The position numbers were made by a program, and so were the translations under genes. A model generated the notes under the pieces. The model worked only from the letters and a program-made list of their open reading frames with translations. It searched no databases and was not told the DNA's origin. 5,396 nt of DNA from a virus. Its lineage: Duplodnaviria > Heunggongvirae > Uroviricota > Caudoviricetes. The DNA lies in the IMG/VR virus record IMGVR_UViG_2663763280_000004. One strand, 5' to 3'. Position 1 is the first letter of the stretch. Each line of letters opens with the position of its first letter. Shown piece after piece: positions 1,603 through 5,396 of the stretch.

Positions 1603-1731
1603 GGTATTGCCTTCGACGGCGATGGCGATCGCGTGATTATGGTCGACCATGAAGGCAATAAAGTCGATGGCGATCAGATCATGTATATCATCGCGCGTGA
1701 AGGTCTTCGTCAGGGCCNGNTGNGTCGTGGC
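1603..1731 (+). pseudogene. glmM: Internal fragment (about 43 codons) of phosphoglucosamine mutase gene glmM, with no start or stop of its own
   Basis: Plus-strand translation [38 protein letters not shown](Q)(L)R contains the phosphohexomutase metal-binding loop DGDGDR and matches recalled E. coli GlmM. N calls at 1718, 1720 and 1723. The frame runs into a stop at 1735-1737 after leaving glmM-like sequence. Confidence 0.7.
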
Positions 1732-1882
1732 TTCTGATTTTTGCCATGAGTTCATCAGTCAATTCAGAAACCCACTGCAGAGCCAGCCCCTTCTCTTCAT
1801 CACTACACTCACTAGCCGCTACAAGCTTAAGAAAAAAATCAATGCGCTGGAGCTTCAAAGACTCCAAAAAATAGTCCTGCAT
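1732..1882 (-). CDS. Small prophage ORF, N-terminal ~50 aa only, behind a LexA-box promoter; possibly a Tum/DinI-like SOS-inducible antirepressor. 3' end lost at the junction
   Basis: ATG at 1880-1882 (minus) preceded by AGGAGG (complement of 1887-1892). Translation is MQDYFLESLKLQRIDFFLKLVAASECSDEEKGLALQWVSELTDELMAKIR. It lies immediately downstream of gene A in the same orientation, as tum does in phage 186. The functional guess is by context only. Confidence 0.45.
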
Positions 1883-1907
1883 CTTTCCTCCTATGACACC
1901 AAAGCAA

Positions 1908-1942
1908 TACTGTATACATAACCACTGTTTATATTTACAGTA
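1908..1942 (-). promoter_or_regulatory. LexA (SOS) operator with overlapping putative sigma70 promoter for the small ORF
   Basis: 1923-1942 CACTGTTTATATTTACAGTA fits the LexA consensus TACTGTATATATATACAGTA, with exact CTGT-N8-ACAG and an AT-rich spacer. An adjacent half-site TACTGTATA sits at 1908-1916. On the minus strand a candidate -35 TTTACA (complement of 1960-1965) and -10 TATACT (complement of 1939-1944) overlap the box, although the 15-nt spacing is short. Confidence 0.6.
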
Positions 1943-2034
1943 TATAATAATCTTACTGATGTAAAACGTTTTTTTACGTTCATCAGCCTGATATGCCTGG
2001 TATTATTAAGAGCACGAATTGTTAACCCGCGTAA

Positions 2035-4449
2035 TTAATACAGATTCCGCCACTTATCATCTTCCCGCAAACGCTGGTTCCGATAGAAGATACGCAGGCC
2101 TGCTCCTGACGGAATACTGCCACCGCGAAGGAGTAAATCGACCTCTTTCTCGCTGCCATCAAATCCTCTGGACTTCAGTTCATAGACGAGCTGCTGTCGC
2201 TGATGATCTGTAATTCGCTGTTTGTAGTCTTTACGCCGTTTCGGCTTAACCAGGCGTAACCTTGCTGCCAGTTCCCGGCGCTCTTTTTTGCTCATACTGT
2301 GCAGGTAATCGTGCAACTCCTTGTCATCCATGCGGGTAATGTCCGTTCTGGTGTCCCCATCAGCTGATTTATCTTTCTCCTGTTGGTTCAAATTTTCCGC
2401 AAGGGGACAGTTATTGCCACGAGTCCAAGGGGCGCAAGCGCCCTGGTCGGCTGCCGCCTCCTGAACGTCAACGGCCTTACGAACCATTTTCCACTTCACG
2501 GCATGAGTGCAGATCTTGCCCTCTGCAATAGGTGACCAGATGCCATAAATACGAATGCCGTGATCGCCATAGGCGGTCGGCTCTTCGTTGATTTCATAAG
2601 CGGTTCTGATGAGGTGATATTTGCGGGGAACCAGTACGCCGCCCTGCTTCATGATGTAGGTGGCAAAACAACCAGCATCAGCAGCAGCCAGAATGGCATC
2701 AAGGCGCGGGTTATCCAGTACCGGCGCACCTGCTTTTTTGTCACCCTGCTGCCTTGCCGCCTGACCAGCCAGCAATCGCAGTTCACGGTAAGCCTGACGC
2801 CCCGGAATACCAAAGAAGCGGAATTGCTGAACACGATGCAGAGACGCCCAGGCATTCACGTATTCAGCGTTATCACGCAGAGATTTACCCGTTTCCTTGC
2901 TGATCTCGCCAGCCAGACCACGCCCGTCAATGTTCTTACTGATATATTTCGCGATGTAGCTTGTCGGCGTTCCTTTGCGCGGATTAATCAGCTCAGACTT
3001 AAAGCGCGGCCCAGTGTTATTTCCCAGCTCCTCGCGGTCTTCACGGATGGCAAACTTACGCAGTAATGCAGTGATGGCGCGGCGGTCTTTTTTGCGCATA
3101 AAACACAACAGGTGCCAGTGAACTGTACCGTCATGATGCGGCTCAGCCACCCGCACGCCATACCACCGCAATCCGGCTTTGTGCATCGCCTTACGAAATG
3201 CAGCAAACATGCCGACCAGATAATCACTGCTTTGTCTTACCGTCGCATTTGTCCAGGTCGGGTTGGGCCTGCCGTTATTTAGCGTGGAATGGAAACGTGA
3301 CGGACAGGTGATGGTGTAGAAAACGGCGCAGTCACCGCGCATTTCCGCGATAAGCTCCAGACCTTTAACACAGGCCATCATCTCATTGCGGCGATGCGCA
3401 GGGTTGCTGCTGCTGGCGTTTACCACATCCTCCATGTCCAGCGTGTCGCCGTCTTCGTTCACCAGTTCATGAGAACGGAAAAACTCCAGCGACTTACGGC
3501 GCTGCTCACGTTTATGCAACACGGCTTCATAGCTGACATAGGGAGATGCTTTTTTGCTGACAAGGCAGACAGCACGCAACTGCTCTTCCCGCCATTCGCA
3601 ACGCATCTTCCATAATTTCCGATACCACCAGTCGGCGCACAACATACGCGCCAGCGAACCCGGAATGAGTTCATAGGGCACGGGTTTACGGCGGTTTCTT
3701 TTCCGACGGAGTTGCTCAAACGCAGGAGGGATGACATCCAGACGCAGGGTTTCCGCCGCCACCCTTTCCCATGTCTTGCGGATTTCTTCTGGCTTAACGT
3801 CATCGGTGGCATACAAATCGCCACAAGCTGCATCAAGGCACATGCTCATATGCGCAGCAACAAGGGTGGACAGGCGTTTCACCTGATCCTGACTCATTTC
3901 AGGCAGAATCAGCAGGCCGTCCAGCCCTTCATGGCTTGCCATAAAGCGAAAAGAAGTGGATAGCTGACTGTCGCGTACATGCTCCAGCCGTTCCAGACAT
4001 GGCTTAATCGTCTCACGCAAATAGCGGGAATAAGCCTTTGGCCTGCCCAGGCTGCTGAAGTATTCAATACGTTGCATCAGCGGCCTGCTGATATGGGAAG
4101 GCTGGGCGTTAACGTCCGCCAGTATGACCATGTCCGGATTAAAACGCTGCTGCTCATGCGCCAGCTTTGCCCGGCTAATGAGCTTATCCTGCTCCATTTC
4201 GCGTTGGACAGGATCACGGGATTCATTAAAGAAATAACGCTCCCAGACCTGATCACTCAGTGCCTCGCGGCGCAGTTGTTCCTGCTCGTTATCGGCAGCG
4301 TACAGAGTGATCAGGTTTGAAAGCGCAGAAACCGGCGCAACTTCCGCCGGGTCCAGATAAGGGTTAATAGCCTTTTTCGGGCTGTTCCATGAGAATGCTG
4401 CGGCGACCTCGTTAACGCCGCTGCAGTTGTTCATATCGGCATGACTCAT
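2035..4449 (-). CDS. Phage P2 gpA-family replication initiation endonuclease (rolling-circle initiator)
   Basis: 804-aa ORF with GGAG 7 nt upstream of the ATG. It contains the metal-binding motif [13 protein letters not shown] (HWH at 3112-3120) and the twin-tyrosine motif [12 protein letters not shown] (Tyr codons 2956-2958 and 2944-2946). Both match my recollection of P2 gpA ([25 protein letters not shown]). Confidence 0.9.
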
Positions 4450-5110
4450 GCACGTACTCCGTACACGGCAGAACTATCCACGCCACGTGAATAATCAAAT
4501 CCCACCCAGCAGCGCGGCCCGGAAACAGCAATGATTTCTGTTGCAGATTTACTCTCGCCAGCCGACACGCCGATGCTGCGTTTTGCCTTGATGTAGTGGT
4601 GAGTGAAATTGCGATACAGCGAACGAATCAGGGATGTGTCACTGTTAGAAACAATGACCGGATGACCTTCAGATGATCGATGTTCAAGAACGGATGCCAG
4701 GTGATACTGGTCATCTTCAGTGAAGCCGTCAGTGTGATAACCGGAAAACGTGCCGTCATACGGCGGATCGCAATACACCACATCCCCCGCGTGCAACATC
4801 GCCAGCGTTTCATCGAAGCTGGCGCAGATAAACGTTGCCCGCTGGGCTTTTACTGCAAATGCACGAATTTCTTTTTCAGGGAAATACGGATTTTTATAAT
4901 TACCGTAGGGAATGTTGAAATGCCCGCTCTTGTTATAGCGACATAAACCACGGTAACCGTGACGATTGAGATACAGGAAATATATCGCTTTCATGAAATC
5001 AGTAATTTCAGTTGAGTAATTAAACTCCTGCCTTATGTTGTAATAATCCATCTCCCTGTTTGCGTTCTCAAATAAAACTCTGGCGCGAGATATAAACGAT
5101 TCACAATCAG
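4446..5110 (-). pseudogene. dam: Phage-type DNA adenine methyltransferase (Dam-like), 5'-truncated by IS1 insertion
   Basis: Minus-strand translation from the IS1 boundary reads DCESFISRARVLFENANREMDYYNIRQEFN...[18 protein letters not shown]...VVYCDPPY.... This aligns with E. coli Dam from about residue 68 onward, including the DPPY catalytic motif. The N-terminal ~67 aa carrying the AdoMet-binding motif are missing; the frame continues into IS1 sequence and stops at 5199-5201. Stop TGA (4446-4448) overlaps the gene A ATG (4447-4449). Confidence 0.85.
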
Positions 5111-5396
5111 GGTGATGCTGCCAACTTACTGATTTAGTGTATGATGGTGTTTTTGAGGTGCTCCAGTGGCTTCTGTTTCTATCAGCTGTCCCTCCTGTTC
5201 AGCTACTGACGGGGTGGTGCGTAACGGCAAAAGCACTGCCGGACATCAGCGCTATCTCTGCTCTCACTGCCGTAAAACATGGCAACTGCAGTTCACTTAC
5301 ACCGCTTCTCAACCCGGTACGCACCAGAAAATCATTGATATGGCCATGAATGGCGTTGGATGCCGGGCAACAGCCCGCATTATGGGCGTTGGCCTC
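5111..5396 (+). mobile_element. IS1 insertion sequence, left end, continuing past the window edge
   Basis: 5111-5133 GGTGATGCTGCCAACTTACTGAT is the IS1 left terminal inverted repeat. The following 286 bp match recalled canonical IS1 almost base for base. Confidence 0.95.
5166..5396 (+). CDS. insA: IS1 InsA, partial (77 of 91 codons), GTG start
   Basis: Translation from GTG 5166 reads [77 protein letters not shown], which is canonical InsA. The ORF-track entry 5137..5349 is a different frame. Confidence 0.9.

Follow-up and report, generated by a model that had tools for sequence, protein, structure and literature searches.

The locus examined here raises two linked questions: does the IS1 end that abuts a prophage dam gene record a genuine transposition, and what would such an event have cost the prophage? 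The window, meaning the whole stretch of 5396 bases analysed, is the complete contig CCCB01000255.1 of an Escherichia coli draft genome (NCBI GCA_000945835.1) in reverse orientation. A first-pass annotation of the same stretch had proposed a precise IS1 insertion into dam, with the element beginning at position 5111, and had set this boundary apart from joins at 1601 and 1731 that it considered random.

The dam/IS1 junction

The window proved to be a mis-scaffolded, chimeric E. coli contig in which unlinked E. coli segments have been falsely joined at three or more places. An unplaced segment that maps elsewhere in E. coli (1–86) is followed by the yraK–rsmI region (89–1600, 100% identity to E. 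coli chromosomes), an internal piece of glmM (1603–1717), the P2-like prophage part (~1731–5110) and finally the IS1 part (5111–5396, the window end). N marks stand at the joins (87–88, 1601–1602 and single Ns at 1718, 1720 and 1723). The suspicion that the joins at 1601 and ~1731 were false was borne out, as both are N-marked and bring together unlinked segments. The prophage gene for a 62-amino acid product 3′ of gene A (~1688–1882, minus strand) is cut by a false join, through which the part of the window's prophage that matches the variable cargo of its relatives has also gone.

Given the false joins at 1601 and 1731, the join at 5110/5111 needed its own check. It might itself have been produced by the assembly, as were the other joins of the scaffold, since at least three of these occur in the window contig and one more in a second contig that carries the locus. 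However, the other joins of the window are all N-marked, whereas the one between dam and IS1 carries no N. It also coincides with the first base of IS1, and a second assembly, GCA_001373215.1, contains it unchanged within 1694 identical bases. On these three grounds the dam/IS1 junction is real, and an artefact at this position is highly improbable. The case illustrates that, even in a poorly scaffolded draft, an IS junction deserves trust if it coincides with the end of the element and is repeated in another assembly.

The contig of the second assembly (CDRT01001143.1; locus L010, 1–2089) stops at the same IS1 base as the window, nt 286. Within its gene A there is a separate false join, marked by NN and 1694 nt away from the contig end. 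The two assemblies, GCA_000945835.1 and GCA_001373215.1, suggest related isolates processed by the same assembly pipeline.

The IS1 element

The plus strand from 5111 to 5396 carries the left 286 bp of IS1, 285 of which agree with the 768-bp IS1A that E. coli BKQWHE carries in complete form; the contig stops inside the element. The left terminal inverted repeat (IRL, GGTGATGCTGCCAACTTACTGAT; 5111–5133, plus strand) matched at 23 of 23 positions, with 0 occurrences in 200 shuffles. About 55 bp inside IRL lies the 5′ part of insA (5166–5396, plus strand), with a GTG start and 77 codons before it is cut by the contig end. Both InsA domains were detected on 5169–5396, namely PF03811 Zn_ribbon_InsA (E 4.6e-20) and PF12759 HTH_Tnp_IS1 (E 1.1e-21). 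The terminal repeat at the element end and the position of insA relative to it assign the element to the IS1 family.

A consensus scan identified a promoter-like site, CTGCCA-16-TATGAT (5118–5145, plus strand), that corresponds in position to the IS1 promoter. It overlaps IRL and is directed inward, away from dam. Partial overlap of the IS1 promoter with IRL has been described (PMC12903888). The sole mismatch in the 286 nt is at window position 5237 (IS1 nt 127), where the window has T and the BKQWHE IS1A has C (aaagcacTgcc). This T may be why the assembler could extend so far into the IS1 repeat.

According to this arrangement, IS1 would have transposed into dam of an E. coli P2-like prophage between dam nt 193 and 194, with IRL facing the 3′ part of dam and insA transcribed away from it. 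The 90 bases around the insertion site have a GC content of 35.6%, compared to 46.7% for the whole dam gene. This local A+T-rich stretch agrees with the reported preference of IS1 for A/T-rich DNA; its target duplications are normally 8 or 9 bp (PMC12903888).

Lost and retained parts of dam

The interrupted gene encodes a Dam-family N6-adenine methyltransferase. Its 3′ 665 nt (nt 194–858) occupy 4446–5110 on the minus strand, and codons 1–64 are missing. Comparison with intact dam–A prophages, as the first-pass annotation had suggested, gave 0 mismatches over the 665 nt against the intact dam of four independent contigs (L004–L007), in which dam adjoins an identical gene A. The fragment is thus unaltered nt 194–858 of an intact allele. 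This identity (665/665), together with that of IRL (23/23), upholds the core of the earlier reading, that an authentic IS1 end abuts the prophage dam and replaces its 5′ part.

The intact prophage dam comprises 858 nt and encodes 285 amino acids. Its protein was found on 20 contigs and covers positions 1–253 of 253 in PF02086, with 321 bits for TIGR00571 and E 9e-73 for E. coli Dam structures. The window fragment reaches only positions 66–253 of PF02086, short of the full-length profile. Its minus-strand frame, with the stop at 4446, is open to 5110, where the IS1 repeat takes over at 5111 as first described, and then continues for 29 further codons inside IS1. The first start codon in this frame is the ATG at 5051. 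The longest remaining ORF with a start codon (4446–5051, minus strand) encodes 201 amino acids from Dam Met85. Exact matches to this product were seen on 2 contigs only in the protein collection, the window and its counterpart in the second assembly, and it is probably not a functional enzyme.

The extent of the loss had been overstated as the 5′ third of the gene; it amounts to 193 of 858 nt (22.5%), or 64 codons and 1 nt. By alignment, phage Dam residue n corresponds to E. coli Dam residue n+3. The break within phage codon 65 therefore falls exactly at E. coli residue 68, which had been given as an approximate position. Lost residues 1–64 include KWAG, motif I VEPFAGS (29–35) and the ADIN aspartate (residue 51), and by homology with E. 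coli Dam would constitute the AdoMet-binding part. The catalytic DPPY motif (residues 179–182 of the intact protein; 4758–4769, minus strand) is kept. With motif I and ADIN lost and DPPY retained, the proposed separation of the AdoMet-binding N-terminus from the catalytic motif agrees with the sequence. The N-terminal motifs might still have lain elsewhere in frame, a possibility raised earlier, but a tblastn search across all frames of the window showed no trace of KWAG, F-x-G-x-x or ADIN (best E 3.5). As the cofactor-binding region is gone, the truncated Dam is expected to be inactive. The GATC-methylation test proposed with the first reading would say little here, because the host would have its own Dam.

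Of 5426 complete E. coli genomes, 1239 carry this dam gene, and 1233 have ≥80% dam coverage in a search that joins pieces across an IS1-sized gap. Describing these 1233 genomes as strictly 'intact' for dam was rejected, as such gaps are bridged in the coverage. An identical gene A is also carried by a 109-kb contig that breaks off within dam (L008, 1–539); the break point, 539 nt away from the stop, differs from the window's.

A second IS1 insertion in the same gene

A search of the 5426 complete E. coli genomes for an IS1 left end close to this stretch of dam yielded only BKQWHE and 730V1, neither with the window's exact junction, which excludes the source strain from this set. In BKQWHE (NZ_CP170298.1), IS1 occupies the same dam in the same orientation, with its end 2 bp from that of the window. 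The 3′ part of dam, ending ...CACAATCAGCG, is followed by the 768-bp IS1, the 9-bp repeat CAATCAGCG and the 5′ part of dam, and both halves are annotated as pseudogene pieces. The left junction comes after CAATCAGCG in BKQWHE and after CACAATCAG in the window. The dam alleles differ at 30 of 665 positions, so that the BKQWHE insertion is independent of the window's.

730V1 carries an IS1B-type element elsewhere in the same dam (L002, 4747–6381), which leaves a 363-nt 3′ dam piece. Gene A is truncated as well in the 730V1 prophage and ISKpn26 lies near cI; this prophage is a more decayed relative.

The right side of the element

The 9 bp beside IRL, CACAATCAG, had been put forward as the target sequence. 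These bases are indeed present at 5102–5110, where they occur once in the window and form a candidate copy of the target duplication; neither a second copy nor the 5′ part of dam on the far side of IS1 was found in the collections searched. For a 9-bp duplication, the right junction is predicted to run from the IS1 right end (...AAGTTGGAGTCATTACC) into dam, reading ...CATTACC-CACAATCAG-CGGCAACC. Exact-pattern scans of genome, metagenome and viral contig collections gave 0 matches for this junction of IS1 right end, CACAATCAG and dam, and 0 for the left junction. The 68-amino acid product of a 9-bp duplication (...KKVAADCG*) was absent from a protein collection that includes the source assembly. 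Exact look-ups in the protein collection gave no match to the products that duplications of 0, 8, 9, 10 and 11 bp would yield, nor to contig-edge forms of the left-junction product (220–230 amino acids). Only the form matching a 7-bp duplication was present. This 73-amino acid product (P0001; ...AADWVMTPTY*) combines the window's dam allele to nt 200 with the IS1 right end, on one 5163-nt Logan contig. A 67-amino acid contig-end partial of the same allele, ...KKVAADC (P0045), was found on 18 contigs, none of them longer than 5.2 kb.

The first-pass annotation had taken a junction at an IS terminus as the signature of genuine transposition. The IS end is real, but this one junction is insufficient to prove a simple insertion, because an IS movement accompanied by a deletion produces an identical left junction and leaves no duplication (PMC11708052). 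A deletion of this kind, an inversion or recombination between IS1 copies could have removed or displaced dam nt 1–193 and the upstream early/immunity region. The prophage would then be a remnant and there would be no target duplication. In line with this, the collections searched, which include the source assembly, yielded neither a product nor a junction of the predicted right side, and IS1 copies are many in E. coli, with thousands of matches across genomes and a median of 10 places per genome. Against it, most IS copies arise as simple insertions, and in BKQWHE a simple insertion lies at nearly the same position. The 18 short contigs with the ...KKVAADC partial are also as expected of a right-side contig that stops at the IS boundary. 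We consider a rearrangement behind the real left junction unlikely.

The Logan product offers a different reading, in which the right junction follows dam nt 200 as at the BKQWHE site. Either 2 bp (CG) would have been lost from the left flank of the window or the duplication would be 7 bp (CAATCAG), and the target repeat would not be CACAATCAG. The Logan product shares the orientation and dam allele of the window, and the absence of the product of a 9-bp duplication points in the same direction. However, a 7-bp repeat departs from the usual 8 or 9 bp of IS1 (PMC12903888), the Logan contig could not be linked to the source strain, and the partial ending ...AADC requires dam sequence past nt 200. 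A right junction of this type is accordingly judged quite improbable.

A simple IS1 insertion, with the dam 5′ part lying past the contig end, is the most likely of the four readings and in our view a probable one. One would then expect the remainder of IS1, a short duplication of the target and dam nt 1–202 to follow there, an arrangement that BKQWHE displays in full 2 bp away. Weighing against a simple insertion are the absence of the right side in the collections, the missing 68-amino acid product, the mis-scaffolding elsewhere in the contig and the location of the IS1 right end outside the window.

Several IS ends lie close together in this gene. Those of the window (5102–5110), BKQWHE (L001, 6403–6413 and 7181–7189) and the Logan contig (P0001) fall at dam nt 192–202; these three are IS1 ends in one and the same orientation, no more than 2 bp apart. 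The Klebsiella pneumoniae product ...AADWLC* (P0015) is compatible with an IS903-type end after dam nt 199, and product P0009 diverges at dam nt 193. The clustering at nt 192–202 was found via a biased look-up and is subject to ascertainment bias. It is possible, if rather doubtful, that these bases form a recurrent, orientation-biased IS landing site, or that IS1 made a 7-bp duplication if the Logan contig came from the strain of the window. The clustering of independent IS ends within ~10 bp is the one mildly unusual point of the case and may reflect a local hot spot in A+T-rich DNA.

Gene A and the early operon

Replication gene A (2035–4449, minus strand; 804 amino acids) is intact, and its ATG overlaps the dam stop codon (ATGA). 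Its product, gpA, spans profile positions 1–321 of 321 in PF05840 Phage_GPA (E 1.3e-127), which places it in this family. An identical A protein adjoins intact dam on many contigs. The dam–A/prophage region is 96–97% identical to Escherichia phage Cartapus, Salmonella phage RE2010 and several Klebsiella P2-like phages, and the early region is of the 186/Fels-2/RE-2010 type.

In intact relatives, one strand carries in order an apl-like gene, cII (CP76), fil, DUF5347, DUF2732, a traR/dksA-like gene, dam, A, the 62-amino acid gene and a dinI-like gene, with cI and int divergent from this row. The traR-like/dam and dam/A pairs each overlap by 4 bases. A promoter-like site with a better-matching first hexamer is located just upstream of the apl-like gene, ahead of the gene row. 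Internal promoter-like sites in the early gene row were no commoner than in shuffles. Gene A belongs to the early lytic operon in P2 and 186. In P2-like phages, this operon begins with the apl/cox gene (PMC7498355). The dam and A genes would stand at the distal end of a compact early operon whose start lies near the divergent cI/apl promoters.

Variable cargo flanks the conserved early region. BKQWHE has genes with GmrSD and HEPN domains beside cI and genes for an S8 peptidase and an AAA ATPase beyond dinI (L001, 1–2335 and 10473–12243). Genes with GAPS4-type domains flank the region in the 109-kb contig (L008, 3629–6379). These cargo segments resemble the defence islands of P2-like prophages.

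The idea that the junction creates a hybrid promoter, reading outward from the IS1 end to gene A, was rejected because the scan showed no such site. The only minus-strand promoter-like site, 5071–5043, is present in intact dam as well. IS1's own promoter cannot drive A, since insA points away from dam. The early-operon position of dam and A, with no IS1-derived outward promoter evident, makes it reasonable to infer from gene order that gene A has been cut off from its native promoter, as the first-pass annotation proposed. By separating A from the early promoter, IS1 would probably lower its expression, which would mark a stage in the decay of the prophage. In this strain, prophage replication is probably impaired.

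Comparison with known systems

IS1, Dam of the P2-like/retron-Ec67 type, gpA and the disruption of prophage genes by IS elements are all known, and the case adds a new example of an ordinary process. The dam remnant belongs under pseudogene annotation and is of little importance otherwise. Classical polar IS1 insertions in gal and lac likewise place IS1 in a multi-gene unit upstream of an intact distal gene; unlike in those cases, we infer the polarity on gene A.

The intact allele is a full-length homologue of E. coli Dam, as are the Dams of P2-like and 186-like prophages such as RE-2010, Cartapus and the 'retron EC67 DNA adenine methylase', a name borne by one member of the protein cluster. 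In contrast to these intact Dams, the window keeps residues 65–285 only. The insB′ region, A6C frameshift site, right inverted repeat (IRR) and duplication of known IS1 would lie beyond the window, in which the element is seen over 286 bp. Over this length it has the same exact 23-bp IRL as IS1 of the IS1A/IS1B type from E. coli and Shigella, the same zinc ribbon and HTH of InsA and the same inward promoter-like site over IRL, with no difference in features across the 286 bp.
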